A stretch of DNA of 64,000 bases from an uncultured delta proteobacterium (GCA_963706575.1 CAVPNL010000005.1:331556-395555); one strand, 5' to 3'; shown: positions 24,520 through 50,925, counted from the stretch's first letter. The notes: generated from the sequence alone by a model not told the origin. Numbers and translations are program-made.

Positions 24520-24535
24520 AGCATGGAGCATGCCA
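24520..24535 (-). promoter_or_regulatory. Sigma-54 (-24/-12) promoter
   Basis: Minus strand TGGCATGCTCCATGCT (GG-N10-GC). Confidence 0.7.
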
Positions 24536-24619
24536 GGAGCGCTCATTTAGAAAAAGTTATTTTATATTGGGAAGTTATGTTTTTTTAAATTGATGGGCAG
24601 GATTGAACTGACTTAAAAT

Positions 24620-24656
24620 TTAGGAAAATTTCGAAATTTTCATCGTAAAATTTCGA
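24620..24656 (-). promoter_or_regulatory. Conserved upstream activator site, copy 1
   Basis: Minus strand TCGAAATTTTACGATGAAAATTTCGAAATTTTCCTAA. Confidence 0.7.
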
Positions 24657-24756
24657 AATTTTATGTTATGGTAAACTCAAAATTCGGCTTAATAGACGTA
24701 TCCTGCGATTTTCCGGGGATATTTCGAAATCTGTGCATTCTCGAGACAGGGTTGAT

Positions 24757-27449
24757 ATGACCATTCGCAAAAAAATGATCCTGATTCTATTGGCAGCTAC
24801 GATTATCCCTTTATGCCTTGTCGGTTTACTGGGATATTTTAATGCCCGCAGGATATTGGAGACAGTACGAATGGAAAACTTGAAAAGTATTGCCGATCTA
24901 AAGGCCAAACGGATCGAAGACTTTTTTGCCGAAATCAAAAACACATCGCTATCGCGCAACAACGTCCGACCCTCAAAAAAAATGCCTGCGATGCTAGCCG
25001 GGTTTTCCGGCGACTGAGTCCAGCCCGATTTATGAGGCCATCAGAGACGAACTGGACCAAGCCTTAAAGATATACCAACCGGTTTATAATTTTATAAACG
25101 TCATTTTGGTCAATCCGGAAGGGAGAATCGTTTATGTTTTGAATCCGTCTTCCGCCGCCCGAACTCCTCGGCCATTCCTTACCGGAATCTCTGGGGAAGA
25201 TCATTTAATGACAGAAACGAGATGGAATTCAATTTTCAGATATATTTTGAAATAATTTGAAGCCAATACATTCTCCATGTTCGCTACGGCGCCCATCCAT
25301 TCTTTTGAGGATCGGTATGGTGGGGTTGGTCGTTTTTGAAATCGACATGGCACCGATTTACGAACTTATCCAGGATACAACCGGACTGGGTGATGACCGG
25401 TGAGACCTTAATCGCTAAAAAAGCTGGAAATCAAGCACTGTTTCTCAACCCACTTCGTCATGATCAAGATGCGGCCTTAAAAAGAAAGGTTGTTTTCGGA
25501 GAGAAGACAAGACCTTCCCGTTCAAGAAGCTCTCAAAGGCAACAATGGATCTGGTTTGTCCGATGGACTATCGCGGGCAGAAGGTTATCGCAGCCTGGCG
25601 ATACATTCCTTCACTGGACTGGGGGATGGTGGCCAAGATAGACCTCGCTGAAGCATTTGAACCTGTTACCACGTCTAAGAGATTTTGTCCTCGTGCTCGT
25701 AATTGCTGTTATTGTGCTCAGTATATTTGTCGCTTTTATCGTTGCAAAATCCATTTCTGATCCGATTCAAATTTTGCAAGCGGGGGCGGAGGAAATTGGG
25801 AAGGGCAATTTAGACTATAAAGTTGCTACCGATGCGAAAGATGAAATCGGACAGCTTGGGCGGGCATTCGATCAAATGACGGAACAGCTAAAGGCCGTGA
25901 CGGCTTCAAGGGATGAACTGGATAAAGAGATAAAAGAACGCAGAAGGGTTGAGAAAGAGTTACAAAAAAGTATGAATGAGGTGGGTGAGCGGATCAAAGA
26001 GCTTAACTGCCTTTTTGAGATATCACGTCTGATGGAAAGACGGGGGCTCACTTTAAAGGAGATACTCCAGGCAATCGTTGAACTCATTCCGCCTGCCTTG
26101 CAGTATCCAGAGATCACGTGTGCCAAGATTATTACAGAAGGTCAGGAATTCAGCACAGGAAACTTTGAAGAAACCAAATGGGCGCTTACCCAAAAAATTA
26201 TTGTCAATGATAAGGCAGTTGGCGCTTTAGCTGTTTGTTATCTCGAAGAACTACCGGAAAGCGATGAGGGGCCTTTTTTGAAAGAAGAAAGAGCTCTGAT
26301 CAATACTATCGCTGAGCGAATTGGAAGAATCATAGAGCGCAATAAAGCACAAACGGCTTTAGTCGAAAGCGAAAAACGCTTTCGGGATTTAGTGGAGCAT
26401 TCATTAACGGGTATATCCATCATTCAGCAAGGCCAGGTCGTTTATCAGAATCCGGAGCAGGAAAGGTTGCTGGGTCCATTACCTCGTCCGATTAAATTTA
26501 CAGACACCAATTCTATCCACCCGGATGATGTTGAAAAAGTAAACGCATTTTATCAAAGCATCAGGGCAGGCAAATTGCCGATTGGAGCGATAGAATTTCA
26601 GATTTTATCCGCCGGGTGAAAAAGTCAACCGGAACAATATGAAATGGGTCCACTGCCAGGCCAGCCAAATAGAATATCAGGGCAAAGATGCCGTAATGGT
26701 GAATATGATGGATATGACCAAGACCAAAGAGCTCGAGCATCTTTTGATCATCCAGGATAAGATGGCCTCTCTGGGTCGTGTGGCAGCCGGTATTGCACAT
26801 GAAATACGCAACCCCCTTTCGGGGATCAATATATATTTAAATACCCTCAAAAAGCTTCACCATCAGGCCGGGAGCGAAGAAAAGGTTGAACAGATATTGC
26901 GACATCTCCAGTCCGCATCTATCAAAATCGAATCCGTTATCCGCAGGGTCATGGATTTCGCAAAACCTAGCGAACCGAAGCTGACTTTAATCGATATTAA
27001 TGAACCCATCACAGATGCGATTAACCTTACTGCGGTGACGATGCGAAAAAGTGGTGTAAATATTGAGACATTTTTAAGCAACTGATTTGCCCCGATCATA
27101 TGCGGATAAAAATTTGATTGAAGAGATAGTTTTAAACCTGTTGAATAACGCTGCCGAAGCCATGAAAACCATGGAAGCCGGTAAAAAAATTGTCGTTGCA
27201 TCGTTTGTTGAGGACGACCAAATTGTTATCCGGGTCTCTGATTCGGGCCCGGGCGTTCCCCTGGAAATTAGAGATAATATACTCGACCCGTATTTTACCA
27301 CCAAACACGAGGGTACCGGTATCGGCTTGAGTTTATGCCACCGAATCATCACCGATCATGGTGGATCATTGACTGTATCGGACAGTGAATTCGGAGGGGC
27401 GGAATTTCAGATAAAAATTCCAATTAATGTAAAGAAATTTTCCAGGTAA
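24757..27449 (+). pseudogene. Cache-HAMP-PAS sensor histidine kinase split by multiple frameshifts (sequencing error or decay)
   Basis: At least six ORF fragments: MTIRKKMILILL, DYRGQKVIAAWRYIP, DEIGQLGRAFDQM, SEKRFRDLVE, GIAHEIRNPL, DSGPG/GTGIGL. Confidence 0.75.
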
Positions 27450-27476
27450 CCCGTATCCGGAAACCAGGAGTGAATC

Positions 27477-28868
27477 ATGATTACCTTTTCCATATACGTC
27501 ATAGATGACGAACAAACCATACGAGATGGGATCACGATGACCCTTGAGTCTGACTATCGGGTTACGGTCATTTTCAAGCGCCGAGCCGGCCATTGATGCT
27601 TTGGAAGAGGATCCTCCGGATTTAATTTTGCTTGATGTCGGTTTGCCGGGAATCAATGGAATTGAAGCCCTTCGTCAAATCAAATCCTTAAATCCGGATA
27701 TTCTGGTCATCATGATCACCGCCTATGAAGATGTCGATACGGTGATCTCTGCCATGAAACTGGGTGCCTACGATTATGTGATCAAGCCGCTTCACATGGA
27801 CGGATTGGAGGTCACCATACGCAATGCCCTGGATTCCATACGGCTGAAAAAGGAAATTCAAGCAGCTCCAGGAAACGTATCTGAAGGAGAACATTCCGTG
27901 TTTTATTAGCGAAAGCAATGCCATTCAGGATGTGATGGACTTTGTCCAGATGGTGGCCAAAAGCCCGGACACACCCAGTGCTCATCATGGGTGAAACCGG
28001 GACCGGCAAAGAACTAATCGCCAGCGCCATTCACTATAACAGCCCGAATTTCAAAGCGCCTTTCGCCACCGTGAATTGCGCTGCCATTCCCAAAGATCTT
28101 ATCGAAAGCGAGCTTTTCGGTTATGAAAAAGGCGCTTTCAGCGGTGCCGGTGCTTCCGGCAAAAAGGGCTTAATCGAAGAGTCGGCCAACGGTACCCTTT
28201 TTTTGGATGAGGTTGGCGACCTGAGCCTGGAAGCCCAGGCCAAGCTGCTGCGGTTTCTTGAGCTCGGCGAATTTTACAGAGTCGGGGGTACAAAAAAATG
28301 CATAATTAAGACCCGGGTCATTTCTGCCACCAATAAAGATCTAAATAAAATGATCGAAGACGGTTTATTTAGAAAAGACCTGTATTTTCGGCTGGGGGTG
28401 ATTAAAGTTCAGGTACCGTCTTTAAACGAGCGACCGGATGATATTGTGCCTCTGGCAAAATATTTTCTCCAAGAATTCAGCGATAAGTTTGGTAAGAAAT
28501 TCACAGCAATTTCTTCAGAAGCCGAGACTGCCTTACTGGCCCACAACTGGACCGGCAATGTGCGGGAGTTAAAAAACCTTATCGAAGGAGCGGTGCTGAT
28601 CGGCAAAGGACCGGAGCTGACCGAAAAAGAGCTGGGATTAGATGAACCCGTCTTAAGGGAGGAATCAACGAAAATCGATATCAGAGAACAGTTGCCGCCT
28701 TTTCCCGCTGAAGGGATGAATCTATCCGAACAACTCCAATCATTTGAAACGTATTATATTAAGACGGCTTTAAAGATTGCAAAGGGTAACGAAAGTCAGG
28801 CTGCCAGGCTGTTGCAAATGAATCACCACACCTTCCGCTACCGCAAAAAAAAATTGATAGGAGACTAG
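27477..28868 (+). pseudogene. NtrC-family sigma-54 activator (REC-AAA+-HTH) with about three frameshifts
   Basis: [58 protein letters not shown]-terminal Fis-type HTH. Frame changes near 27565, 27863 and 27975. Confidence 0.85.
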
Positions 28869-28989
28869 CTCCTTATCTTTGACACATCACTTACTAACCG
28901 ACCAGATCATGTGATTTATTCTCCAGTTGCTTCTTTAATCTCATCATAAATAAACCTCCGACTCAATTCTCGAGACTCAAGCCTTCATA

Positions 28990-29026
28990 TTGAAATTTTG
29001 CGAAAACAATTTCGAAATTTTTCTAA
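28990..29026 (+). promoter_or_regulatory. Conserved upstream activator site, copy 2
   Basis: TTGAAATTTTGCGAAAACAATTTCGAAATTTTTCTAA. Confidence 0.75.
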
Positions 29027-29111
29027 TTCAAGAATCAATTGAACGTGTCACCTAAAAAAACAATTCCAATAAGCATTTGGTTTTATATAATTTATCATCA
29101 ACAACACAACT

Positions 29112-29127
29112 TGGCACGCAATATGCT
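29112..29127 (+). promoter_or_regulatory. Sigma-54 promoter
   Basis: TGGCACGCAATATGCT. Confidence 0.8.
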
Positions 29128-29193
29128 CAAAGACTTGATGAACAAACATTCAGCTAGTTGGATGTCCATCAAAAATTTCCAAGGAGCCAAACC

Positions 29194-29712
29194 ATGATTC
29201 CAAAAATTCGAAGAATTCTTTATGCCACCGATCTTTCCCCCAATTCTGCTTACGCATTCCAATATGCCATCAATTCTGCGATCAAGCATGACGCCGTCAT
29301 CATCATCCTGCATGTTTTTGAACCGCTGTCCACTGCTGTTCGCGCCCAAATGGGACTCTATCTTGATGATGAGCGCAGAAAAAAAATCTTCGACGATCAG
29401 GTCAGCTACACCATCGATCGGATAAAAAAACGGTTAAGCACCTTTTCAGACAAAGAATTAAAAGATTATCCCAAAGCTGAAGATCGTATTGAATCGATTC
29501 AAGTCTTTGAGGGCTTTCCAGCTGACGCTATTCTGGAAAAGGCCAATGAATTGGAATGTGATGCGATCGTTATGGGAACCCATGGAAAAGGGATTCTTGC
29601 AAATACATTTTTGGGAAGTGTCGCCAAACGGGTTCTGCGTCGAAGCCGCCTACCCGTTTTTATTATACCCCTGCCCAGAGGCGAGACAGACCTAACAGTG
29701 CATGATGATTAA
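29194..29712 (+). CDS. Universal stress protein
   Basis: ILYATDLS; IVMGTHGKG...LGSVAKRVLR. RBS AAGGAG. Confidence 0.9.
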   Translation: MIPKIRRILYATDLSPNSAYAFQYAINSAIKHDAVIIILHVFEPLSTAVRAQMGLYLDDERRKKIFDDQVSYTIDRIKKRLSTFSDKELKDYPKAEDRIESIQVFEGFPADAILEKANELECDAIVMGTHGKGILANTFLGSVAKRVLRRSRLPVFIIPLPRGETDLTVHDD

Positions 29713-29751
29713 GTCTTTATTCAATCTCGGGGAAATTTATTGGAGGTTTAG

Positions 29752-30147
29752 ATGAAGATAGTGGTGGGATATGATGGATCCAATGCTTCCCAAAAAGCAC
29801 TGATCTTGGCCAAACAACACGCTGCTACCTGGCAAGGAAAAATAGAAGTCGTCCAGGCAATTGCCCGCAAAGCCCCCCTTTCCTATGACCAGATTGAGAA
29901 AGCCGAAAAGCAGTTAGCGCAGCAGATGAAAAGCATATTGGCCGGCAACAGGATAAGGTTTGAGACAACGCTGCTGGTCGGGGCAAAGGAGCCGGGAGAA
30001 CAGATCGTCAATTTTGCGGAAAGCATTCATGCTGACGAGATCATCATCGGTTCCAGAAAGAGATCTAAAATTGGCAAATTCGTCCTGGGTTCAACAACCC
30101 AGGTCGTTGTTCTCAATGCACCCTGCCCGGTTATCTTGGTGAAATGA
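29752..30147 (+). CDS. Universal stress protein
   Basis: IVVGYDGS; IIIGSRKRS..GKFVLGSTTQ; APCPV. Confidence 0.9.
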   Translation: MKIVVGYDGSNASQKALILAKQHAATWQGKIEVVQAIARKAPLSYDQIEKAEKQLAQQMKSILAGNRIRFETTLLVGAKEPGEQIVNFAESIHADEIIIGSRKRSKIGKFVLGSTTQVVVLNAPCPVILVK

Positions 30148-30217
30148 GTACAGACCCGGGGAAAGGTAACCTTGCGGATAGGGTCAACTAAGCTTGCATA
30201 GGAGGTAACGCTTTAAA

Positions 30218-30619
30218 ATGAATGTGTTTAGCGCACTAAAGTACAAGAAAATCCTGCTCATAGATGATGATGAGTGGATAAGAGAGGCCATGCGCATATT
30301 TTTCGAGACCGAAAACTGCAAGATAACAGCGCTTGAAACAGCCGAAGAGGCACTCAAAATGCTTCATCAACAGGATTATGACATTGTCATTTGCGATTAT
30401 AAATTGCCGGGCCTGAGCGGGTTGACTTTTCTAAAAGAAGTGCGGCAGACGCAGTCGGATGCGTTAACCATACTGATAACTGCTTACAAAACGAACGATC
30501 TGGTGTCAGAGGCCAAAAAGATCGGTATTCATGGGTTCATTGCTAAACCCTTCACCTCAGAAACAATTGAAGCCGCTTTAAGTCATCTAATTGCCAGGCA
30601 GAAATATGGCAACCAATGA
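30218..30619 (+). CDS. Single-domain response regulator
   Basis: LLIDDD..CDYKLPG..ITAY..AKPF. Confidence 0.9.
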   Translation: MNVFSALKYKKILLIDDDEWIREAMRIFFETENCKITALETAEEALKMLHQQDYDIVICDYKLPGLSGLTFLKEVRQTQSDALTILITAYKTNDLVSEAKKIGIHGFIAKPFTSETIEAALSHLIARQKYGNQ

Positions 30620-30718
30620 AATGAAGGCGCATTAATATCGCAGTTCAGATTGCCGGGAGCAAAATTTTACAAATCGAATTCGATTCATCTATCCACCGCA
30701 ACCATTAAGGGTGTAAAA

Positions 30719-30964
30719 ATGAATGAAAAACAATCGATATGGATTTGCACAAACTGCGGATATTCCTCCTCGAAACCGTTTGAGGCGCATATTTGCCCGA
30801 AGTGCCATTTCACCTTCTGGAAATGTATGTATTGTGCTTACGCGCTTATTTCGGCAAGCCCTCCTGAAACCTGCCCGGAATGTAACACACAGGTAAAATT
30901 TCAAAACATTACCTGTTACATACCGGATTGGGATGACCACGAGTACGTGAACAGCGAAAGTTAG
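30719..30964 (+). CDS. Small protein with four CxxC pairs (double rubredoxin/Zn-ribbon-like)
   Basis: WICTNCGY...CPKC..WKCMYCAY...PPETCPEC. Confidence 0.65.
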   Translation: MNEKQSIWICTNCGYSSSKPFEAHICPKCHFTFWKCMYCAYALISASPPETCPECNTQVKFQNITCYIPDWDDHEYVNSES

Positions 30965-31030
30965 ACGGTTACCAGGAATCCATTTTTTTTGTAATGCGCA
31001 TTTTTGATACTTATTAGAAGGGCTGTAATT

Positions 31031-31387
31031 ATGACAGTCAAACAAAATGACACAATGATGATGCATCATACCAAAAGAATCTGTGATCGTTTCGATTGCT
31101 GTTTTTCGGTATGTGTTGCGCGTTTCAACGACACGCAATATTTTCAAGGCAAGATGGCGAACTACAGTCAGAATGGACTGTATTTTGAATCCGAATCAGC
31201 GTTTCAGCCGGGAACAAGTATTTTAATCCGAGTCCAAAATAACCTAAAGGTGGATCGTGCGTTTAGATTCGAAGAAGGATTCAGATCGATGTCCCTCGGA
31301 GAAGTAAAATGGTGTAAAAAATTCATCTCAGAAGGTTCCACCTATTATGCTGTCGGTGTCCAATATTATGAGCCTGATTATGGGTGA
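31031..31387 (+). CDS. PilZ-domain protein
   Basis: RICDR (RxxxR), NYSQNG, GEVKWC, VGVQY. Confidence 0.7.
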   Translation: MTVKQNDTMMMHHTKRICDRFDCCFSVCVARFNDTQYFQGKMANYSQNGLYFESESAFQPGTSILIRVQNNLKVDRAFRFEEGFRSMSLGEVKWCKKFISEGSTYYAVGVQYYEPDYG

Positions 31388-31432
31388 AACTGCCCAGCGC
31401 TTATTGGTTTCACCTATCGAAAGGGGTCTGTC

Positions 31433-32383
31433 ATGTCCAGATCTTCAGCCCATCCCCGCATTCTTTTCGTAACGCCGGAAAATATTTTTTCCCCTGCTGG
31501 TTCCGAAAAGAATACGGATTATATGCCCTCACAATCAAATGGCTTTGCCGAATTCCTGGCGGATCTGATCGGCGATCTGTTTGAACGGGGTGCTGATGTG
31601 CACATAACGCAGCCCGATTATCGCAGCGTTTTTGCAGACATCTTCGACATCAACCCCATAATGGGCGCTCGAAAGATTCCGCAGACCCGGGTACATCTGA
31701 CTGAAGACCGGACGTTTTATTACACCAATTGTCCGGAATCCAATCGCCAGTGGGAAAATATCAGAATTTCTCTGGCCTTCCAGCGCGAAGTCATCAATCG
31801 CATCCTGCCCCTGGTACAGCCGAATTTAATCCACTGCCACGGTTGGATGACCGGCTTGATTCCAGCGATGGCCAGGAGGCTGGAGATTCCCTGTATTTTT
31901 ACCTTTCAGAACCTTGAAACCTGCAAAATCCCTTTATCAGAAATCGAAGACCGAGGAATTGATGCCGCCTCTTTTTGGCACCACCTGTTTTATTATCGCT
32001 TTCCGGCAAATTACGAGGAAACCCGGGAGACCAATCCGGCCGATTTTCTTTTAAGCGGAATCTTTGCGGCTGATTACACCAGCGTCGCCGGTCCTGTTCT
32101 TCTGGTAAAAATCGGCGAAAGCCTCATTCGGTTTCCCGAGGCACCGTTGGGAAGGCTGCTGTCTGAAAAATTGGCATTCGGCTGCAGTGCGGGCGCAGAT
32201 TATCATGCGGTCAGAATACAATATATTGACCTGTATGAAAGGCTGCTCAAAAAGCCGGTCATTGAAACGCGGATAAAGAAATCAAGATTAATCGATGCAT
32301 CGATGCATGCTGGTATCATGTCAAATAAAGCGGACAGCAATTATAATTCTGACACCCATCATGCGGTAAGAATGGCCGGTTAA
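31433..32383 (+). CDS. Degenerate glycogen/starch synthase-like protein (N-terminal GT5 domain only)
   Basis: RILFVTPE, GADVHITQPDYR, LIHCHGWMTGLIP, terminal YIDLYERLL. No KxGG motif and no second GT-B domain. Confidence 0.7.
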   Translation: MSRSSAHPRILFVTPENIFSPAGSEKNTDYMPSQSNGFAEFLADLIGDLFERGADVHITQPDYRSVFADIFDINPIMGARKIPQTRVHLTEDRTFYYTNCPESNRQWENIRISLAFQREVINRILPLVQPNLIHCHGWMTGLIPAMARRLEIPCIFTFQNLETCKIPLSEIEDRGIDAASFWHHLFYYRFPANYEETRETNPADFLLSGIFAADYTSVAGPVLLVKIGESLIRFPEAPLGRLLSEKLAFGCSAGADYHAVRIQYIDLYERLLKKPVIETRIKKSRLIDASMHAGIMSNKADSNYNSDTHHAVRMAG

Positions 32384-32465: not shown

Positions 32466-32503
32466 TCTCAATTTTCCGAAATTGTTTTTTGAAATTTCTC
32501 TAA
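32466..32503 (+). promoter_or_regulatory. Conserved upstream activator site, copy 3 (degenerate, 38 bp)
   Basis: TCTCAATTTTCCGAAATTGTTTTTTGAAATTTCTCTAA. Confidence 0.55.
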
Positions 32504-32589
32504 ATCCAGCGGATCATAATAATTTTCTGTTTAAGCCCCGTTAAGGCTAAGTTACTGAATTTAAATTGATTATTATATCTACTATAAAA

Positions 32590-32605
32590 TGGCATATTTC
32601 CTGCT
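32590..32605 (+). promoter_or_regulatory. Sigma-54 promoter
   Basis: TGGCATATTTCCTGCT. Confidence 0.7.
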
Positions 32606-32715
32606 ACCTGTTTAATTAAACACGAACCATATCCGCAAAAAGGATTCTTTTTGATTTAAGTGCCCACAGTCGGTTGCGGTGCCAACAATGACTAGTGTTT
32701 GAAAGGAGGTCAACC

Positions 32716-33803: not shown

Positions 33804-33910
33804 GAAAAATCAGCGAAGTCTTTGCCGAGGCATTTTTGATCGGCGAAGGAGTGATGACTAAATGGATATGACGGTGCCCGGTAAGCGCAGGGATTTATCG
33901 TAAATACCTG

Positions 33911-34943: not shown

Positions 34944-34980
34944 TCGAATATTTGCGAAAAGAATTTCGAATTTTTTCTAA
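34944..34980 (+). promoter_or_regulatory. Conserved upstream activator site, copy 4
   Basis: TCGAATATTTGCGAAAAGAATTTCGAATTTTTTCTAA. Confidence 0.75.
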
Positions 34981-35064: not shown

Positions 35065-35080
35065 TGGCATACTAACTGCT
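35065..35080 (+). promoter_or_regulatory. Sigma-54 promoter
   Basis: TGGCATACTAACTGCT. Confidence 0.75.
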
Positions 35081-40892: not shown

Positions 40893-40906
40893 GGGGAGTT
40901 ACGCCC

Positions 40907-41810: not shown

Positions 41811-42906
41811 ACAATCGAGGCCACAATTGAAAGACAGCCGGCATTCAATCAAAAAAAAGATTCTGAGCGTAAAAGGCGACAGCTCGGCAAATGCATCCTG
41901 GCAAAACCATGAGTGGTGGGGGCCGTCCCCTGAAGAATCGCGTCATACAGCGGTCAACAAATTTAAAGCGCTGGTGGATAAGCGGGTAAGCTTAAAACAG
42001 GCGGTAGAAAAATATATCAAAAATGGCGTCAATATCGGCATCGGGGGATTCGTCAACACCCGGATCCCGGTGGCGATTATCCATGAAATCATCCGCAAGG
42101 GGGCAAAAGAACTGACGCTTTCGTTTCAATCGACCTCAATCTGTGCTGAATTGTTAGCCGGTGCCATGCTGCTGAATCCCGACCACCTGTCCATTAAACG
42201 TGTCGAGCTGGCCTGGTGGGGTTACGAGGTGATCGGTATTGCGCCACTGTTGAGGCATCTGGCCGCAAAAGGCATGATTCAGTTTGACGATTATACCAAC
42301 TATGGCATGTCCGCCAGATTCAAAGCGGCTGCCATGGGCCTCGAGTTTCTTCCGGTAATGGATCATGGCGGGTCAGACATGGAGCGATTCAATCGCGGAA
42401 CGATGATCAGAAGCCCTTTTAGCGGTAAGAACACATACCTGGTGCCAGCCTGTTACCCGGATGTGGCCATTATCCATGCCTCGGCCGCAGATGTTTATGG
42501 TAATTGCCGCATATTCGGCCCGCTGTGTACCTGTGCTGAAATTGCGATGGCGGCGACCTATACCGTTGTCACCACCGAACAGATCATATCAAATCAAAGC
42601 ATCAGGGCCTATCCCAATTTGACCGAAATTCCATACCTGGTGGTTGATGCGTTAATTGAACAACCATTCGGTGCCTATCCCGGGCTTTGTTATGGGCACT
42701 ACTGGTTTGACATGGCGCACATCCGGCTGTTTCGAAGCGCGTCGGCTGAGTTTCAAAGATCGGGAAATTTAGATCCTTTAAAAAAATACTACACTGACTA
42801 TATCTTCGGATGTGAAAGCTTTGATGATTTTCTTAAAAAAATTCCGCCGGAAACTTTGGAAAAAGTAAAGCGCATGGACGGCGCTCAGCCGATTATCGTC
42901 GGCTGA
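41797..42906 (+). CDS. CoA-transferase alpha subunit (GctA/CatI-like)
   Basis: IGIGGF..RIPVAIIHEIIR; RFKAAAMG; PDVAIIHA..AD.YGN; PFGAYP..CYG.Y. Confidence 0.85.
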   Translation: MMKPKQSRPQLKDSRHSIKKKILSVKGDSSANASWQNHEWWGPSPEESRHTAVNKFKALVDKRVSLKQAVEKYIKNGVNIGIGGFVNTRIPVAIIHEIIRKGAKELTLSFQSTSICAELLAGAMLLNPDHLSIKRVELAWWGYEVIGIAPLLRHLAAKGMIQFDDYTNYGMSARFKAAAMGLEFLPVMDHGGSDMERFNRGTMIRSPFSGKNTYLVPACYPDVAIIHASAADVYGNCRIFGPLCTCAEIAMAATYTVVTTEQIISNQSIRAYPNLTEIPYLVVDALIEQPFGAYPGLCYGHYWFDMAHIRLFRSASAEFQRSGNLDPLKKYYTDYIFGCESFDDFLKKIPPETLEKVKRMDGAQPIIVG

Positions 42907-42940
42907 GGCGACCACGATTTAATTTAACGGGGCTTGAAAA

Positions 42941-43723
42941 ATGACGAACTATTCAGCGGTTGAAATGATTGCTTTTACAGGTTCCCGAATGCTGGAAGAC
43001 AATAAAATTGTCTTTGTCGGAACCGGTCTGCCGATGATTGCCGCCATGCACGCGCAGCTGACCCATGCTCCCGGGCTGGGCATGATTTTTGAAGCCGGAG
43101 CGCTGTCTCCGGTTCTGGATCTCGGGATCCCGCTGTCGGTCGGCGATACCCGGGCCTGCCGGCAGGCCTGCTATTTAAAAGGCTTATGTGCTGTTTTCGA
43201 ATTGACGCAAAGGGGTTATGCGGATTATGCCTTTATCGGCGGCGCTCAAATTGATCAGTACGGCAATGTCAACTCCACTTTTGAAGGCGGCTCATATGAA
43301 AAGCCCCGAACGCGGTTTCCCGGAAGCGGCGGTGCCGGCGCAATGGCGGCCAACTGCCAAAAAACGATTATTATCATGGCCCTTGAAAAAAGAAGGTTTG
43401 TTAAAAAATTGGATTTCCTTACCAGCATCGGCTTTGGTGACGGGTCAGCAGCGTTTCGTAAAAAATCCGGCGTGGCGGGATCCGGCCCCTTTCGCGTGAT
43501 CACGCATGAAGCCCTTTTTGGTTTTGACGAACAAAGCCGCAAGATGGTGCTGCTCGAGGTGGCGCCGGGTAAATCCGCTCAACACATTCAAGAGAAAGTG
43601 GGCTTTAAATTGCATCTTTCGCCGAATCTTGACGCCATGCCGGAACCGACCGAAAAGGATTTAAAGCTTCTCAGAGAAGTATGTGACCCTGAAGGCTATT
43701 TTCTGGCAAGAAAAGTTAAATAG
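42941..43723 (+). CDS. CoA-transferase beta subunit (GctB/CatJ-like)
   Basis: VFVGTGLP; IFEAG (catalytic Glu position); GGAQIDQYGNVNST; RFPGSGGA. Confidence 0.85.
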   Translation: MTNYSAVEMIAFTGSRMLEDNKIVFVGTGLPMIAAMHAQLTHAPGLGMIFEAGALSPVLDLGIPLSVGDTRACRQACYLKGLCAVFELTQRGYADYAFIGGAQIDQYGNVNSTFEGGSYEKPRTRFPGSGGAGAMAANCQKTIIIMALEKRRFVKKLDFLTSIGFGDGSAAFRKKSGVAGSGPFRVITHEALFGFDEQSRKMVLLEVAPGKSAQHIQEKVGFKLHLSPNLDAMPEPTEKDLKLLREVCDPEGYFLARKVK

Positions 43724-44289
43724 CACCGGCGGTCAGCGAAAATAATTTCTTTATCTGAAAATCTGAAAATGTCTTCGATGACCATTGGGATCACCCGGGC
43801 AGCGGCTTTCCTTACCGGTGGCGTTAGCTCAAAGCCAAAATCGAAACAAAACCCCTCTATGCCATAAAGGATAAACCGGCGTGGCAGCCGGTCCAGCGCA
43901 CGCGCTAACTTCATCGCCCTGGCAAGCCCCAATCGATGCGTGGACGGGCTCAAAAAACAATCGGGGATGCGTTGGCCGCTGTCATTGAATCGATGGATTT
44001 TTCCGGGGGATGTGCATCTGCCGGAGTTTACGGCATCTATCAAAATAACGGCGTCGGTTGCCGCCCAGGATGCAACCAATGCGGCTGCATCGCCGGTTTC
44101 CAATTCGATCCGGGCTCCCGGAAGGTTGGCCGCTTTCAGCCGGCGCGCAATCCACAGACCCACGCCGTCATCACTTCTGGTTTCGTTGCCGATGCCGATA
44201 ACCCGGATTGGCGCTTGGGACCTGAGTTGCAGCGAATCACAGCTGCCGCAATTGCCAACCATTTGCACTCCAGTGGCTGATGGGTTCAC
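43696..44289 (-). CDS. Hydrogenase maturation protease
   Basis: VIGIGN...DDGVG; ILIDA; STH..GL; YGIEG. Confidence 0.9.
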   Translation of the reverse strand: MNPSATGVQMVGNCGSCDSLQLRSQAPIRVIGIGNETRSDDGVGLWIARRLKAANLPGARIELETGDAAALVASWAATDAVILIDAVNSGRCTSPGKIHRFNDSGQRIPDCFLSPSTHRLGLARAMKLARALDRLPRRFILYGIEGFCFDFGFELTPPVRKAAARVIPMVIEDIFRFSDKEIIFADRRCYLTFLARK

Positions 44290-45578
44290 TCACGCTGGAT
44301 TTCGACCTGCAAGAAATGACACGAGCATGAAATGCAGGGGTCGTAATTGCGGACGACCTGCTCGCACATCCAGGTTAGTTTTTCATCGGGAAGATCGGCA
44401 TTTTTGCGGGCAAAATCGAGCAGATCTTTTTCGATGATTTTTTGGTTCTGGGAAGTCGGAGGGACAATCCTGGCATCCAGAATGATGCCGTTTTCATCCA
44501 CCCGATAGCGATGCCAGCAAATTCCCCGCGGCGCTTCCGTGCAGCCGTAGGCGGTGGTGGCGACCGGCTTAAGCGCGATGGACGATTGCGCAGGGGTCTC
44601 ATAATTTTCGATAAGACGCAACGCTTCGTCGCAGGCATAAACTGTTTCAATACTTCTAATGATGATGCTCTTGAAGGGGTTGGCGCACGTTGGCGCCATT
44701 TTGACTTCACGGGCCGCTTGCTGTGCAACCGGAGATAATTGATCGAAGTTTAGATTGAATCTTGCCATGGGACCGACCATATAAGCGCCCCGCCCTTTAA
44801 TTGCGGCGTGCAGTGAGGTGGAATGTTCCACCTGTTCCTCCTGGATATAGTGTTCGAAATCACTGATCGGAATTTCAAGCCCTTTATTGGAAATCAGATT
44901 TCCATCCATAATTGCATATTCCTGCGGATGGTGCAGGGCGATAAATTCATAGTCTTGCTCGAAGTCGGGAAAAGGCAGCTCGGCTGCCCAGCAGACCGTC
45001 CTGTAGGCGGCGTCGCGCGCCCATTGGATTCGATCCTTGAGCGAAAAGAGCTCATCCTTTGCCGGGGCCCGGTAAAATCCGCCGGCTTTGAGGTTTATTG
45101 GGTGAATCTCCCGACCGCCGATAAGGGCAACAATCTCGTTTCCGAGTTTCTTCAGTTGCAGACCCTGTTGGACAATATCCGGATGATCTTTGGCGAGTTC
45201 GACGGCATCCGGGTAGCCCAAAAAATCGGGCGCATGCAGCAGATAAATGTGCAAGGCATGGCTTTCGATCCACTCACCGCAGAAAATCAGTCGACGCAGC
45301 GCTCGCAATTGTCCGTCAATCTTCGCAGCGAAGCCGGTTTCCATGGCCTGGCTGGCACTCACTAAATAAGCGATCGGACATATTCCACAAATACGGGCGG
45401 TGATATCAGGAGCCTCCGAGAATTTTCGTCCGCGCAGAAATGCTTCGAAAAAGCGGGGCGGTTCAAAAATATTGAATTTGGCATCCGATACCATACCGTT
45501 TTTAAACTTGATGACTAATCCGCCTTCGCCTTCCACCCGGGCCAGGTAATCGACTTTAAGATTCTTTCTAGACTTCAT
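44286..45578 (-). CDS. Group 3b-type [NiFe] hydrogenase large (alpha) subunit
   Basis: [23 protein letters not shown] (L1), [17 protein letters not shown] followed by a C-terminal extension. Confidence 0.9.
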
Positions 45579-46350
45579 GCGCCTCACTCTCCTTGCGAAA
45601 AATTTCGGCACAGGCATTGAACCCTCTGAAGGCCAGCAGCAGATCCTTTTCCTCCATTTCGAGCCGGTCGCCCAACCAGCGGCTTAATGCGTGCGTATTC
45701 GCTGATTCTTTCGGGCCGAAGCAGGCATAGCAGCCTCGATGATAAGCCGGACAGAGGGCACCGCAGCCGGCTTGAGTTACCGGTCCAAGGCAGGGTATGC
45801 CTTGAGCGATCATCACGCAGACGTTTCCTTTCATTTTACACTCGATACATACGCTGTACGAAGGAATGAGCGGCTTGCGACCCATCAGCAGCGCACTGAG
45901 TACCTCAAGCAGCTGATACTTGTTGATCGGGCAACCACGCAGCTCGTAGTCCACTCGAATATGATCTGAAACCGGTGTGGATTTGCCGAGGGCTTCGATG
46001 TATTGGGGTTTGGCATAGACAATCCGGATAAACTCATTGATGTCCATAAAATTGCGTAGCGCCTGAATCCCACCGGCGGTTGCACAGGCGCCGATGGTGA
46101 TAATGGTGTCGGATGTGCGGCGAATTTTGTGGATTCGTTCCGCATCATGGGGCGTGGTAATGGAGCCCTCGACCAGAGAGACATCATATGGCCCTCTGAT
46201 GACGTTGCGGAAGCCCTCGGGAAAATGCGCGATCGTCACCTCACGGGCAACGGATAATAATTCATCTTCACAATCGAGCAAGCTCAGCTGGCAGCCATCA
46301 CAGGAGGCAAATTTCCACACGGCAATTTTGGGTTTTCGCTTTGATTGCAT
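45568..46350 (-). CDS. Group 3b-type hydrogenase small (delta) subunit
   Basis: [44 protein letters not shown]...RGCYACFG. Confidence 0.9.
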
Positions 46351-46351
46351 G

Positions 46352-47191
46352 TCAGATCTCCTGTTTGCGAAACAGATGTTCAACCTGGCTATATAGGAAA
46401 ACGGGCCCATCTTTGCAGACAAATTTCGGTCCCATCTGGCAATGCCCGCAAAAGCCGACCCCGCATTTCATATTGCGTTCCATTGAAATATAGATATGGT
46501 TGTCCGCCAGACCACGATTTTTAAGTTCCTTGATCGTATAGTACATCATGATTTCCGGGCCGCACAGCATGGCGAAAGTATTGGCAGGGTCACATTGCAA
46601 TCTGGATATCAGGGTGGTGACGACCCCGACGTTGCCGTGCCATCCTTCCCTGGCGCTGTCCACGGTTACATTGATTTCCAGATCAAATCGGCCGCGCCAT
46701 TTCTCTATTTGGTCGCGGTATATCAGATCGCCGGGAGTTCGTTCGCCATAAATCAAGATGACCTGGCCGTATTTTTCTCGATGCGACAGGATATAATAGA
46801 GTACCGGTCTGAGCGGCGCAACGCCGATGCCGCCGGCACAGAGCAAAATGTCATGCCCGCTGAGTGTTTCGATCGGCCACCCCCTGCCGAAAGGACCTCT
46901 AAGGCCAAGACGGGCTCCTTTTTTCAAAGTCATCATGCGGCTGGTTACCGATCCGTAGGCGCGCACCGTATGAACGATTTTAGCGGCATTTGAGGGATCG
47001 CCGCTGATGGAAATCGGCACCTCACCGATACCATACAGGTAAAGCATGTTAAACTGGCCGGGCCGGAAGTGAAATCCAGCATTTTTGTTTTGGGGCCGAA
47101 ATTCCAAAGTGAACGTGTCATGGGTCTCGGGAATAAAGCGCTCAACGGGATGAAATACAGACAGCATTGGCTCTTTGTTAACTGCTTTCAT
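46352..47191 (-). CDS. Group 3b-type hydrogenase gamma subunit (FAD/NAD(P)-binding, [2Fe-2S])
   Basis: [46 protein letters not shown]. Confidence 0.9.
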
Positions 47192-47204
47192 TAGCCCCTT
47201 CCTT

Positions 47205-47666
47205 TCAAGCGTATTTTCCGTAGACATCCAACAACTGGAGCCTTGTCGCCTGAAGGCGCTCAACCACAATTTTTGAGAACCGCTTGAGCAATTCATAGCC
47301 CAGGCGATGATTTGCTTCAGCTTCCTGCCTTAAAAAGATCCCGTCCCATGCAAAGGCGGCCGTATCCTGAATGGCCCTGGCATCGAAGCGGCGCCGGTAA
47401 GGCGGGAAAAGCCATGACCATCCTAAAATTTCCCCGGCGCCGACGGTTTGAATAACCAGGACCCCGCGCTCCGCCGAAAATAATTCAACAGCGACTTTTC
47501 CCTGCCGGATGAGAAGAAACTGGTCGGCTTCATTCCCCTCGCGATAAATCATTTGTTTAGCATTGAAACTCGCATGGGCAGCCGAAGCGCTAAAAATTTT
47601 CAGCAGGTCGGAGTCGAGATTCTCAAAAAAAGGGTGCCCGGCCAGCTCGCTTTCTGATATCTTCAT
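47205..47666 (-). CDS. Stand-alone cyclic-nucleotide-binding domain protein
   Basis: HPFF..L, IYREG, LIRQGKV, GEILGWSWLFPPY, A.A. No HTH. Confidence 0.85.
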   Translation of the reverse strand: MKISESELAGHPFFENLDSDLLKIFSASAAHASFNAKQMIYREGNEADQFLLIRQGKVAVELFSAERGVLVIQTVGAGEILGWSWLFPPYRRRFDARAIQDTAAFAWDGIFLRQEAEANHRLGYELLKRFSKIVVERLQATRLQLLDVYGKYA

Positions 47667-47681
47667 CGATATTCTCCTTTT

Positions 47682-48833
47682 TTATGCATTAAGCCCCGGC
47701 GGCATTCTCTCCTGCAGAATTGCACTTGCTTCCTGGCTGATGTCAATTCCTACCGGGCACCACGTTATGCAGCGCCCGCATCCCACACATCCGATCTTAC
47801 CGAATTGATCAGCCCATGTGGCCAGTTTATGGCCGAGCCACTGTCGATAGCGGGATGCGACCGAAGCGCGTATCGTTCCGCCATGCATGTACGAGAAATC
47901 CTGCGTGAAACAGGAATCCCATCTGCGCCAGCGCTCGGCCCTGTCGCCGCTGAGAGAATTTGAATCTTCAACGCTGTGGCAAAAGCAGGTCGGGCAAACC
48001 ATGGTGCAATTGCCGCAGGCCAGACATTTTTTGGCCGTTTGATTCCACCGGTGATGCTCAAATTTTTCGAAAAAAATGGACCTCAGATTCGATGTGTCCA
48101 AAGACTTGCCCACTTGCGATCGGGCCCGCTCGAGCACCCTTTGCTCAAGGGTTATCTCCTTTTCAGCGGCCTTGCGGCCGTCCACTTTACTGAGCATTTT
48201 TTCCCCGCCGCGACTGCCAGCTTCTGCGACAAAGAAGTGGCTGCCTTTGGCCTTTACTTCGGTTAAAACGATATCAAAGCCGGATGTCGCTGCGGGACCG
48301 GTATCCATTGAAACACAAAAGCAGGTCTGTGCGGGTCGCGAACAATTTACCGCCACCAGAAACGCCTGCTTGCGTCTGAGTGTGTACGTCGGATCAAAAA
48401 AATCACCGGTATTAAAAACGTTGTCCAGGATAGCCATGGCACTCAGTTCGCACGGTCGAACGCCGATGAATGCGTATTTCGGAGCTTTTTGCGCTTGCTC
48501 GACGCTTTCGAAACCGGTATCGCTTCGTCTGGCCTGCCACAGCCGCTCTCGCGGGGGATGAAGATACTTTTTCCAGGAGTGCGGGCCCAAAGCGTATCCA
48601 AAAAAAGTGTCATTCTTACTTCTTTCCAGGCGATAAGTCCCGGCCTCCTGAAAATCCGTCCAGCCGATCGGCAGTTCTGATATGGACCGCAACTCACTGA
48701 GAATAACGGCTTTATCTCGAACGGTAGGCCCGATGGTTTGATAGCCCTTGACTTGCAGCAGGTTCAATATTTGTTCAAGACCTTTTTTCTCGATGACGCG
48801 CTTATCTCCAACAGGTAAAATAATTTTGGACAT
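47682..48833 (-). CDS. Group 3b-type hydrogenase beta subunit (AsrA-like Fe-S)
   Basis: GVRPCEL, NC...CFC, CLACGNCTMVCPTCFC, WDSCF, CVGCGRCITWCPVGID. Confidence 0.9.
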   Translation of the reverse strand: MSKIILPVGDKRVIEKKGLEQILNLLQVKGYQTIGPTVRDKAVILSELRSISELPIGWTDFQEAGTYRLERSKNDTFFGYALGPHSWKKYLHPPRERLWQARRSDTGFESVEQAQKAPKYAFIGVRPCELSAMAILDNVFNTGDFFDPTYTLRRKQAFLVAVNCSRPAQTCFCVSMDTGPAATSGFDIVLTEVKAKGSHFFVAEAGSRGGEKMLSKVDGRKAAEKEITLEQRVLERARSQVGKSLDTSNLRSIFFEKFEHHRWNQTAKKCLACGNCTMVCPTCFCHSVEDSNSLSGDRAERWRRWDSCFTQDFSYMHGGTIRASVASRYRQWLGHKLATWADQFGKIGCVGCGRCITWCPVGIDISQEASAILQERMPPGLNA

Positions 48834-48893: not shown

Positions 48894-48909
48894 TGCACCA
48901 ATTGTGCCA
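48894..48909 (-). promoter_or_regulatory. Sigma-54 promoter (hydrogenase operon)
   Basis: Minus strand TGGCACAATTGGTGCA. Confidence 0.75.
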
Positions 48910-49004
48910 ATCCCTGCAGAAGGTGTTTATTGCAAATATATCCGAAGATTAACAAAATGCTTCCCGGAATTTATTTTAGTGAGACAAAAAAATAATTAAG
49001 AAAG

Positions 49005-49041
49005 TTGAAATTTTGCGAAAAAAATTTCGAAACTTTTCGAA
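49005..49041 (+). promoter_or_regulatory. Conserved upstream activator site, copy 5 (between divergent promoters)
   Basis: TTGAAATTTTGCGAAAAAAATTTCGAAACTTTTCGAA. Confidence 0.75.
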
Positions 49042-49126
49042 AACCCGGGAGACCGGGCGATACGCTTTGCGGGTGAGCCGTGCTAATAAACCAAAATTAT
49101 TGTATTATATTAATTCTGAAATCTGC

Positions 49127-49142
49127 TGGCATGGTTTCTGCT
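49127..49142 (+). promoter_or_regulatory. Sigma-54 promoter (FNT gene)
   Basis: TGGCATGGTTTCTGCT. Confidence 0.7.
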
Positions 49143-49178
49143 TTCATACGGTCTAACAATGAGCTGATAACCCCAATA

Positions 49179-49982
49179 ATGGCCTATAAACCCCCATATG
49201 AGATCGTCAGATCAGTGAATCAAGCCGGACTGGTTAAAGCGCGCATGGGTTTAGCCAAAACGCTGATTATGGGATTTTTGGCGGGCGCTTTCATCGCCTT
49301 CGGGGGGTTGCTGGCGATTATGGTCGGCGGCGGCATACCCGCAATCAAATCCGCCAATCCCGGCTTGCAGAAGTTTATCTTTGGAGCGGTTTTCCCGGTG
49401 GGGCTCATGCTGGTGGTTATCGCCGGCGCTGAACTTTTCACCGGCAATACGGCCGTTAGCATTCCCGGTGTTCTGTCCGCAAGAATTCGCTGGTTTGGAT
49501 GGCTCAAAAACCTGATTCTTTCTTATTCGGGAAATCTGGCGGGCTCTCTTTTCGTGGCCTACTTTCTGGCCTATCAAACCCATCTGGTGGACAGCCAGCC
49601 CTGGTTGAGCTTTGCTATCAATATTTCCCAAGAAAAGGTTTCCCATCATTTTTGGGTGCTGCTGCTCAGGGGGGTCGGCTGCAACTGGCTGGTCTGTCTG
49701 GCCATCTGGCTGGCAATTGCCTCGGATGATGTTGCCGGTAAAATTCTGGGTATTTGGTTTCCCATCATGGCGTTTGTGGCCCTGGGATTTGAGCATTCCA
49801 TCGCCAACATGTTTTTTATCCCTTTGGGTATTTATTGCGGCGCGCAGGTGAGCTGGTATCAGTTTTTCATTGTCAATCTCATTCCCGTAACCCTTGGTAA
49901 CATTCTAGGAGGAAGTTTTTTTGTAGGTGTGATATACTGGTATATCTATGAGCATAAAGTTAAATCGGATCAACCCCTTTAA
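49179..49982 (+). CDS. Formate/nitrite transporter (FNT) family channel
   Basis: FPVGL..VVIAGAELFTGN; GN..G; CNWLVCLA; GFEHSIANM; GNILGG. Confidence 0.95.
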   Translation: MAYKPPYEIVRSVNQAGLVKARMGLAKTLIMGFLAGAFIAFGGLLAIMVGGGIPAIKSANPGLQKFIFGAVFPVGLMLVVIAGAELFTGNTAVSIPGVLSARIRWFGWLKNLILSYSGNLAGSLFVAYFLAYQTHLVDSQPWLSFAINISQEKVSHHFWVLLLRGVGCNWLVCLAIWLAIASDDVAGKILGIWFPIMAFVALGFEHSIANMFFIPLGIYCGAQVSWYQFFIVNLIPVTLGNILGGSFFVGVIYWYIYEHKVKSDQPL

Positions 49983-50078
49983 AGCACGCTGTAATTTTTA
50001 AAATATCGCCGGAATTGATCCACATCGATACCGTATGCCGGTATTACCGATTCGCAAGAATGAATTGGGGGTTTTAAA

Positions 50079-50408
50079 ATGGAAGATCGAACGGAAAAGA
50101 GATCCTGTGAGCGCCATTATCAGGAAGTTCCGATCACAGTGGCCTATTTTAATACCAACAGGTATCACAGTGCCAAGATGCTGAACTACAGTGAAGGGGG
50201 GATTTATTTTGAATCGGATTTCGCATTTCAGCCCGGGGCAAGCATATATTTCAGAATTGAAAAAAAAATGACGGACCTGCCTGCCAGAAAGATCCATAAT
50301 GGCTTCCGATCCGTGACACTTGGCGAAGTAAAGTGGTGCAAACAAATAAATAAAGGGGAATCCAGCCTATCTGGAATGGGTGTCAAGTATTACGAACTTG
50401 AATACTAG
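50079..50408 (+). CDS. PilZ-domain protein (paralog of 31031..31387)
   Basis: RSCER, NYSEGGIYFES, GEVKWC, GVKY. Confidence 0.75.
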   Translation: MEDRTEKRSCERHYQEVPITVAYFNTNRYHSAKMLNYSEGGIYFESDFAFQPGASIYFRIEKKMTDLPARKIHNGFRSVTLGEVKWCKQINKGESSLSGMGVKYYELEY

Positions 50409-50474
50409 TGTTGTGTCCCGCAAGTAATTTACAACTTACGGGTCAAGTTTATTAAGGTTAATTCGCTTTATTTT

Positions 50475-50600
50475 AGGTGTCAGAAATAACTAGGTGTCAG
50501 TGTTCAGGTGTCAGGATCACGAACCCGAAGACGGCTAGAATCATCAGATTCCGCAATTTGCCAGCCGTTTTCTGACTCCTGAGCACAGACACCTGACACC
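50475..50600. repeat. AGGTGTCAG repeats with a downstream inverted copy
   Basis: AGGTGTCAG at 50475, 50492 and 50506. Complementary CTGACTCCTGAGCACAGACACCTGACACC at 50572-50600. Confidence 0.55.
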
Positions 50601-50788
50601 ATAGACCCTGTGTCGTTTAAAGAATTCAACTGAACGAAAATATACCACGCGATTTTCGTAACATCCTACCGTCAATCTTTCTGAATCACCGCCAGTCCCG
50701 CTCCCGAGAGCCCGTTTAGCGTATTTTTCATTCGCCTTCACCTGCGGGGACACCGTCTCGTCTTAACGGGAAAGTGGGGAGCTTCCTT

Positions 50789-50825
50789 TTGAAATATTGC
50801 GAAAAAAATTTCGCAATATTTCAAA
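50789..50825 (+). promoter_or_regulatory. Conserved upstream activator site, copy 6 (perfect inverted repeat)
   Basis: TTGAAATATTGCGAAA-AAAA-TTTCGCAATATTTCAA. Confidence 0.8.
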
Positions 50826-50909
50826 AATTCAGCGTAACAGCCAATATGCCGGTCCGGGTTTAAATCAAAACATACTGAATTTAATAACTTTTTTAAAACA
50901 GCTGTGATT

Positions 50910-50925
50910 TGGCATACCTTGTGCT
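50910..50925 (+). promoter_or_regulatory. Sigma-54 promoter
   Basis: TGGCATACCTTGTGCT. Confidence 0.75.

Follow-up and report, generated by a model that had tools for sequence, protein, structure and literature searches.

What do six conserved copies of a long inverted repeat, each standing at almost the same distance from a sigma-54 promoter, control in the genome of a sediment bacterium, and which protein reads them? The question is raised by a window of 64,000 nucleotides (the whole stretch of DNA analysed here, from an uncultured delta proteobacterium; GCA_963706575.1, CAVPNL010000005.1:331556-395555), in which the sites and their promoters lie between positions 24520 and 50925, counted from the first letter of the window. 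The DNA belongs to a sulfate-reducing, uncultured member of the Desulfobacterales from sediment, whose genome has dsrA, rpoN and IHF/HU genes. The reading that we favour, with a probability of roughly 0.7, is that the sites mark a sigma-54 regulon governed by a two-component system of NtrC type in Desulfobacterota, which may respond to a shortage of energy or of electron acceptor.

Each site is built of two 16-bp halves (16-N4-16 in five copies, with N5 in copy 3), and each half is itself a 14-bp quasi-palindrome, TCGAAA-WW-TTKCGA, so that the element forms a tandem pair of dyads 22 bp apart. Copy 1 (24621-24656) and its promoter (24520-24535, TGGCAT-N6-TGC) lie on the minus strand, 85 bp apart. 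The other five copies lie on the plus strand together with their promoters: copy 2 (28990-29025) is followed by a promoter at 29112-29127 after 86 bp, copy 3 with its 5-bp spacer (32466-32502) by one at 32590-32605 after 87 bp, copy 4 (34944-34979) by one at 35065-35080 after 85 bp, copy 5 (49005-49040) by one at 49127-49142 after 86 bp, and copy 6 (50789-50824), a perfect 16-N4-16 inverted repeat, by one at 50910-50925 after 85 bp. A divergent promoter on the minus strand (48894-48909) stands 95 bp from copy 5, that is, 85 bp plus one helical turn. All seven promoters (7/7) have the form TGGCAY-N6-TGC, with the -24/-12 arrangement GG-N10-GC before each target operon, and promoter 1 is kept in 8/8 aligned regions. 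The original prediction had placed the six sites and seven promoters at these positions and with these six spacings; its divergent promoter is likewise present, at a distance that our recount shortens by one base from the 96 bp first given.

A scan of this and related genomes with a matrix, which the original prediction had proposed as a check, identified the window copies as the only strong matches in the host genome. With a matrix built from the six sites, the copies rank 1-6 in the 5.67-Mb genome at 44.5-29.9 bits, and the next match (22.5 bits) has no promoter. A matrix derived only from 90 promoter regions of relatives again ranks them 1-6 (48.0-30.4 bits), the next independent place scoring 17.2. 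Among 182 sigma-54-like promoters of the genome, six have the site 80-90 bp upstream, and the next score is 1.4. Chance origin of the sites could be rejected, as 0/200 locally shuffled windows reach 30 bits (maximum 18.0). The matrix scan of the 5.67 Mb found no further targets elsewhere in the genome, and the promoters of hdrCB/orp, of carbon monoxide dehydrogenase (CODH) and upstream of hdr, which are targets in relatives, are without a site here.

The same architecture recurs in relatives. Over all collected loci we found 107 distinct sites, 97 of them with a promoter; 90 of the site-promoter distances fall at 82-88 bp and a few of the remaining ones at 71-75 and 95-98 bp. In 91 promoter regions the distal unit has the sequence TCGAAATTTTGCGAAA, the proximal one TTTCGAAATTTTTCTA; since the two differ and both point the same way, the element is oriented towards the promoter. 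An IHF-like box (WATCAA-N4-TTR on the bottom strand, at most two mismatches) is present at -44 to -40 in 70/91 regions, whereas 22 control windows gave counts of 1-15. Of the promoters studied here, 3/7 have a clear box of this kind, namely promoter 2 (29070-29082, minus strand, at -42, one mismatch), promoter 3 (32548-32560, minus strand, at -42, two mismatches) and the divergent promoter (48939-48951, two mismatches). Over the regions compared, these are tandem dyad enhancers at a fixed spacing of ~85 bp, with an IHF-like box at most promoters.

Which protein, then, reads the site? On the plus strand, next to copy 1, lie a sensor kinase gene (24757-27449), whose intact 897-aa ortholog is organized as dCache-HAMP-GAF-like-PAS-HisKA-HATPase, and the gene of an NtrC-type bacterial enhancer-binding protein (bEBP; 27477-28868) with a receiver domain (REC), an AAA+ domain carrying GAFSGA, and a Fis-type helix-turn-helix (HTH) with the helix NHHTFRYR. 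Among 58 loci, scored with the matrix built from the window only, 30/37 with a regulator identity of at least 64% carry the tandem site in their flanks, whereas 0/21 at 60% or less do. Within the family, all 11 genomes with an ortholog of 79% identity or more match the site pattern, compared with 4/14 without one; in two of these four exceptions (G018 and G020) a contig end truncates the cognate kinase, in a third (G014) the best site is 88 bp from the contig start, and the fourth is G022, which is 97% complete. Across the order the strict N4 pattern occurs in 29/401 genomes (0 for a reversed-pattern control), and a cross-count finds it in 22/87 genomes with an HTH match (E<=1e-12) versus 7/314 without. 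The 30 best HTH loci of the order all read NHHT(F/Y)RY, and 19 of the 29 besides the window have a site of at least 24 bits within 1.5 kb, by a matrix partly trained on them. The window regulator nests among site-bearing orthologs with a support of 98 (quick tree, 80 rows), and among 36 bEBP AAA+ loci of its genome (including four fragments in which no HTH could be read) it alone has the helix NHHTFRYR.

The sole other member of the subfamily in the genome, a paralog on contig C6, carries the helix TRDKFRYR and goes with another tandem, placed equally far from the promoter. The paralog-type tandem, read by eye as TG(T/G)G..TTTCCACAA-N4-TTTGGGTCAAA..CCACA, stands 80-88 bp before sigma-54 promoters, and 11/19 loci with a TRDKFRYR-type helix show a promoter within 1.6 kb. 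As the site adjoins the orthologs, the helix is unique in the genome, and the paralog differs in both helix and site, the protein that binds here is most likely the NtrC-type regulator encoded alongside. The claim that this regulator acts on about 28-30 kb of genes through the site thus gains strong comparative support. The kinase-regulator operon has a putative sigma-70 promoter whose -35 position falls within copy 1 and whose putative extended -10 box (24664-24672, plus strand; TG-T-TATGGT) was read by eye; this suggests negative autoregulation of the operon through copy 1. The box adjoining this copy, TGTTAT(G/A)GT, is kept in 5/8 aligned regions.

Other regulators appear to have sites of their own. 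The sister bEBP with the helix (T/S)RD(K/R)FRYR (G000:C6 ~194000-195300, locus L024; also at loci L012-L028 and L160-L163) may command a second, apparently undescribed regulon, and two paralog-type promoters lie behind its gene in this genome. At locus L157 (~11480-11630) a regulator with the helix NYYNFRYR precedes a third variant of the site, TGGTGATTTTACCA..TTCGGAAATGTTCCCA, with unchanged spacing, as a single example. In other Desulfobacterota (L211, L212, L218, L222, L227) the same HTH type is found in open frames of 590-798 aa, which may be one-component versions fitted with different sensors. Two nearly identical bEBP genes lie on different contigs of the host genome (G000:C1:369636 and C18:103885), by duplication or bin redundancy. 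The best 120 of 364 HTH matches and 7 clusters include no cultured, named ortholog.

The regulator and kinase genes are broken in the window sequence. No open reading frame (ORF) spans 27477-28868, and compared with 10 relatives the regulator gene falls into four frames through one-base insertions near 27564, 27862 and 27974; in these relatives the protein has 462-468 aa and is open through all three break points (one is cut by a contig end). The intact ortholog P0001 has REC, an AAA+ domain with a GAFTGA-type loop and the Fis HTH, and the same domains are spread over the four frames in the window. The original prediction of an NtrC-type activator at this place is therefore borne out as to the gene, but not as to an intact ORF, and the control ascribed to it presupposes that the breaks arose in sequencing. 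Aligned with six relatives, kinase and regulator together show 17 indels (15 insertions and two deletions; 14 in the kinase and three in the regulator), of which 12 crowd within 24932-25674; the frameshift background amounts to 7 junctions over 181 genes (204 kb). Private changes in the two genes number 38 synonymous and 25 non-synonymous in the window, versus 33-124 and 24-89 in the six relatives, and 16 and 4 in the regulator part of the window. Private non-synonymous changes are thus not in excess, nor is there a clear nonsense codon outside one misaligned patch. In contigs 97-98% alike, spans that contain 5, 1 and 3 of the indels have just as many gaps (5, 1 and 3; gap positions partly listed), and three background frameshifts elsewhere also read as +1. 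A search for reads of the source sample found no such run, the best share of words in any sequencing run being 0.30. The 15:2 bias towards insertions, the lack of a non-synonymous excess, the equal gap counts in contigs 97-98% alike and the +1 background breaks favour assembly error, and we consider it probable that the indels are sequencing errors and the system is alive.

The seven promoters face about 28 kb with about 35 genes, including six genes for universal stress proteins (USPs) and two for CBS proteins. Promoter 1 faces operon 1 (20053-24422, minus strand), which encodes a histidine kinase (600 aa), a receiver-DASS transporter fusion (688 aa) and a receiver protein (183 aa); the same kinase and REC-DASS pair lies behind a site in G003. 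Operon 2 (29158-32383, plus strand) encodes two USPs, a receiver protein, a rubredoxin-like protein, a 127-aa protein that has no Pfam match and resembles the PilZ protein at 50079, and a GT5-like domain protein. Operon 3 (32695-34720, plus strand), with a 109-aa hypothetical protein, a cytidylate-kinase-like protein and a membrane GGDEF protein, has a similar gene run behind a site in G283. Operon 4 (35136-43723, plus strand) contains a tandem USP, a six-subunit Ech-type group 4 [NiFe]-hydrogenase, a further USP, and a CoA-transferase's alpha and beta subunits. The hydrogenase has the subunit order EchA-F; its large subunit has both CxxC Ni motifs, RVCGIC and DPCISC, and no C-terminal extension, and its closest solved relative is the MBH alpha subunit.

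The divergent promoter faces operon 5 (43696-48833, minus strand), with the beta subunit of a group 3b-type [NiFe]-hydrogenase, a cNMP-domain protein, the gamma, delta and alpha subunits, and a maturation protease. The best NCBIfam matches of this beta-gamma-delta-alpha enzyme are sulfhydrogenase models, under the archaeal cut-offs, and its best matches in the PDB are cytosolic Hyh/SHI alpha subunits. Operon 6 (49080-50408, plus strand) encodes a formate/nitrite (FNT) channel, over the cut-off of TIGR00790, and a PilZ protein; the FNT ORF opens at 49080 and its likely start is the ATG at 49179, past the promoter. Operon 7 (50993-54529, plus strand) encodes a CBS protein, a tandem USP, a CBS-ACT protein, a lone GNAT domain and a USP. 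The lone GNAT domain (53186-53986) is a C-terminal remnant of an acyl-CoA ligase-ATP-grasp-GNAT protein that has 886-891 aa in G283, G106 and G409. Scans for terminators and sigma-70 promoters stay near shuffle level, so that the operon ends rest on gene spacing. The window has neither a tRNA gene nor a clear GC break and thus gives no support for a classical mobile island.

Several neighbouring genes of the window lie outside these operons. A 175-aa PrdB/GrdB-like reductase fragment ending in FLVPV (55243-55770) may be a selenoprotein cut at TGA. At 14577-19941 there are two SCO4226-like genes and NifU_N, DUF5320, DUF134, SelD and YedF genes, for which neither a site nor a sigma-54 promoter was found here; in relatives, homologs lie behind a site. 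The region 35-14451 holds an HdrD/HdrA/MvhD/FrhB-like cluster with two kinases, including a 1146-aa HdrA-like protein with an inserted receiver domain (6580-10020). In G004 a homologous Hdr cluster lies downstream of a site; the promoter upstream of the window counterpart (window position -1382) is without one and scores -32.7 in the site scan.

What the site controls in relatives was tallied over the first three genes behind 93 sites with downstream ORFs (77/104 clusters annotated; the classes overlap). USP or CBS genes lie behind 20/93 sites, genes resembling those of the Orp proteins or for Fe-S/metal assembly (Nitro_FeMo-Co, MinD-4Fe4S, NUBPL, DUF134 and others) behind 26/93, genes for heterodisulfide reductase (Hdr), CODH, pyruvate:ferredoxin oxidoreductase (PFOR), acyl-CoA ligase or Ech behind 26/93, and REC, GAF or kinase genes behind 27/93. 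Look-alike islands with 4-7 sites occur in three genomes of another family (G283, with six sites, G409 and G106), and a scan of 52/97 of their ORFs adds pyruvate phosphate dikinase (PPDK), AAA_33 kinases, phosphofructokinase (PFK) and CstA. EchA is present in 4/57 chosen genomes, with a site upstream in both that have assembled upstream DNA (G283 and G018), and the beta subunit of 3b in 3/57. The hydrogenases are, by these gene contents, variable and not core members of the regulon. At loci L248 (6974-8587) and L254 (8812-10449), AAA_33 proteins of 538-546 aa adjoin USPs behind a site, and presumably recall Rv2004c of the DosR regulon. In G022 (G022:C20:20922; locus L080 ~9920-13560) a single site with a promoter at 85 bp precedes a Ugp-like sugar/glycerol-phosphate ABC operon, and a similar operon lies behind a site in G011.

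How does this system compare with those already known? The closest likeness is to NtrC-type (group I) bEBPs, which have the same REC-AAA+ (GAFSGA)-Fis HTH organization, the cognate kinase upstream, tandem dyads ~100 bp before the -24 box and an IHF-like box between. The spacing here is unusually rigid, both units face the promoter, and the site sequence is unlike the known ones compared. GAFSGA is listed as a functional variant (PMC4641369). OrpR (DVU2106) of Desulfovibrio vulgaris activates orp genes with sigma-54 and IHF (PMC3897727, PMC8359166); its site has a similar inner core (CG..A/T-tract..CG), and strain G20 has two sites 22 bp apart (PMC4641369). Orp-like genes are also frequent targets in relatives of the window. 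However, OrpR is described as a one-component PAS[4Fe-4S] protein with three Cys, a 17-bp site, GGGCGYRTTTTGCGCCC, and a two-operon regulon (PMC8359166, PMC4641369), whereas the window system is a two-component one with a receiver domain, an A/T-flanked site with 8 bp between the CG pairs instead of 7, and a broad regulon. Membership in the OrpR family is thus rejected, given the receiver in place of an N-terminal PAS[4Fe-4S] domain and a site that is not GGGCGYRTTTTGCGCCC.

NmpRSTU of Myxococcus xanthus shares an NtrC-like regulator, tandem sites, sigma-54 promoters, autoregulation, CBS and USP targets and a proposed response to low oxygen or energy, but it differs in its site (GCGCA-N5-TGCGC), the 14-15 bp between sites, an aerobic host and a multi-component phosphorelay (PMC11841059). 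As neither the site nor the spacing of NmpR is matched here, membership in its regulon is rejected. DVU3305 of D. vulgaris is likewise a response regulator with GAFSGA, and its annotation names general stress response and transport. It uses the site TGTTGC-N5-GCAACA, whose copies in most promoters are separated by 45-81 bp (PMC4641369), and its regulon was rejected since the site sequence does not match. The hydrogenase and FNT genes recall another group of sigma-54 bEBPs, FhlA and HyfR of Escherichia coli, one-component GAF-type formate sensors that control group 4 hydrogenases; the hyf operon also includes an FNT gene. A group 4 hydrogenase and FNT are alike in the two systems, but the window island has no formate dehydrogenase gene.

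Likeness of output alone connects the window to two regulons of aerobic hosts that do not use sigma-54, those of DosR, a LuxR/NarL-type regulator of mycobacteria, and of the lxa locus of Burkholderia cenocepacia. Both comprise multiple USPs, PFK and enzymes of the phosphoenolpyruvate synthase (PEPS)/PPDK type (bioRxiv 10.1101/2023.09.11.557286, PMC3721108). The targets of M. smegmatis DosR include a fermentative group 3b hydrogenase (bioRxiv 10.1101/2023.09.11.557286), and lxa is a clustered locus with six USPs, a Fnr/Anr-like motif and the box TGA-N6-TCA (PMC3721108). Membership in either was rejected, as the window regulator is a sigma-54 bEBP and not of NarL or Fnr type. A text search of five supplement files of PMC4641369 with four 8-mers found no TTTCGAAA among the Desulfovibrio sites, only partial matches inside other motifs. 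We found no published description of the site or the regulon, although supplements, subscription papers and RegPrecise entries that we did not read could hold one. The site is probably undescribed, and the mechanism appears to be an ordinary one of textbook type.

A number of observations weigh against a regulon governed in this way. The 17 indels fall within 4.1 kb and are confined to the two regulatory genes, at ~100 times the background, and the window regulator sits on a somewhat long end branch (0.24 versus 0.08-0.19), in part because of a few misframed residues. Copies 1, 4, 5 and 6 have only poor matches to the IHF-like box, with 3-4 mismatches. Sites without a close ortholog were found in G022, in spite of its 97% completeness, and in G014, G283 and G397; G283 (560 contigs) has six of them. 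Fourteen Desulfobacula-type loci (54-58% identity) have the helix NHHTFRY(K) and no site above threshold, three of them showing weak variants of 12-25 bits at 76-106 bp. In the phylum sample, with an HTH match in 45/401 genomes, a site of at least 20 bits lies within 1.5 kb at 5/29 HTH loci, and the genomes are kin, so that counts over them are not independent tests. Hydrogenases are as rare as the counts above imply; a site is missing from the 3b operons of G126 and G007, and in G018 no sigma-54 promoter points towards the 3b genes, so that the link of 3b to the regulon rests on the window alone. A fold search with a model of the GAF-PAS part of the kinase gave generic PAS/GAF/LOV matches and no ligand.

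These points bear differently on three other explanations. The genomes with sites and no detected ortholog would suit another factor binding the site (a different bEBP, or a protein of Rex or CRP/FNR type), the local gene being a mere neighbour or target, and the site centre, TTGCGAAA-N4-TTTCGCAA, superficially resembles the Rex-type box TTGTGAA-N4-TTCACAA. However, the helix occurs in no other bEBP of the genome, helix and site co-vary in the paralog, the site lies directly behind or before the regulator operon across many families, and the rigid 85-bp distance to the sigma-54 boxes suits an activator and not Rex, which makes this explanation very improbable. It is also unlikely, if less so, that the regulon is the same but this strain has genuinely lost kinase and regulator to pseudogene formation, leaving a 28-kb island orphaned and silent. 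The confinement of the indels to two genes with intact neighbours would then be expected, the lone GNAT remnant attests to some decay in the island, and G022 likewise has a site and no regulator found. Yet gene decay in bacteria is deletion-biased and the indels are mostly insertions; moreover, the coding changes show neither a non-synonymous excess nor, outside the misaligned patch, a clear nonsense codon, the sites are near-consensus, and the checked background errors are likewise +1.

A further alternative accepts the regulator and alters only its signal, and hence overlaps with the reading that we favour. The regulon would be switched on by low ambient redox during normal anoxic growth, with O2-sensitive Fe-S and Ni enzymes shut off under oxidative shifts, and would be no starvation switch. 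OrpR turns on orp operons when the redox potential is low and is itself off at about -260 to -290 mV (PMC8359166), and the two sites 22 bp apart of its ortholog are a parallel in layout (PMC4641369 supplement). The Orp-like genes and those of the Hdr, CODH and PFOR type, each class at 26/93 sites, would fit such a signal, but USP/CBS genes (20/93), PPDK, PFK, AAA_33 kinases and CstA fit energy stress better, and the alignment of the kinase sensor region has no conserved Cys cluster. We regard an OrpR-like signal as the main rival to the one favoured here, and as only somewhat less probable. Taken together, the comparisons indicate that the regulon is real and well delimited, and that its regulator is convincingly assigned.

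For the two-component regulon that we favour, the following course is proposed. The kinase would sense an internal state through its conserved cytoplasmic PAS domain, usually together with a GAF-like domain. In many orthologous kinases the periplasmic dCache part is missing, the PAS-kinase part is kept and the GAF-like domain often so, which indicates an internal cue; a structure model of the GAF-PAS part (predicted local distance difference test, pLDDT, 85) confirms the two folds. The phosphorylated regulator would bind both tandem sites on one helix face and then oligomerise, IHF would bend the DNA, and the GAFSGA loop of the AAA+ domain would open the sigma-54 complex; from copy 1 the regulator would probably also repress its own sigma-70-type promoter. 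These steps (phosphorylation, dimers, oligomer, IHF loop, sigma-54 opening) follow the general biology of bEBPs and are consistent with PMC11841059 and PMC3897727. The output would be USP and CBS nucleotide sensors, together with the shedding of reductant as H2, formate or acetate, by way of Ech, the 3b hydrogenase and FNT in the window, and of CODH, PFOR, Hdr, ADP-forming acyl-CoA ligase and Fe-S assembly in relatives. Judged from the targets, the signal may tentatively be taken as over-reduction or energy shortage when the electron acceptor is limited.

Desulfobacterales are major sulfate reducers of marine sediments, and the relatives of the regulator come from metagenome-assembled genomes of this order, including the Olavius Delta 1 symbiont, Eth-SRB2 and uncultured Desulfosarcina. 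The published regulon work that we found is on Desulfovibrio; the present data provide a site with 107 examples, its likely regulator, and a list of targets open to reading in any metagenome-assembled genome or to testing in metatranscriptomes. If the regulon does answer a shortage of acceptor or energy, it would give a handle on the persistence or fermentation of such cells under scarce sulfate. For specificity swaps the sister regulator is a ready-made system, since its helix and site differ and the geometry is the same. By analogy one may speculate, with considerable doubt, that the NHHTFRYR subfamily is a phylum-wide sigma-54 counterpart of DosR, which would switch abundant uncultured sediment sulfate reducers, including symbiotic lineages and partners in alkane oxidation, into an energy-saving state that sheds H2, formate or acetate when sulfate or energy runs short. 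Were this so, the 36-bp site would be a sequence-readable marker of a dormancy or fermentation programme, and the sister regulators would constitute a natural recognition code from helix to site.

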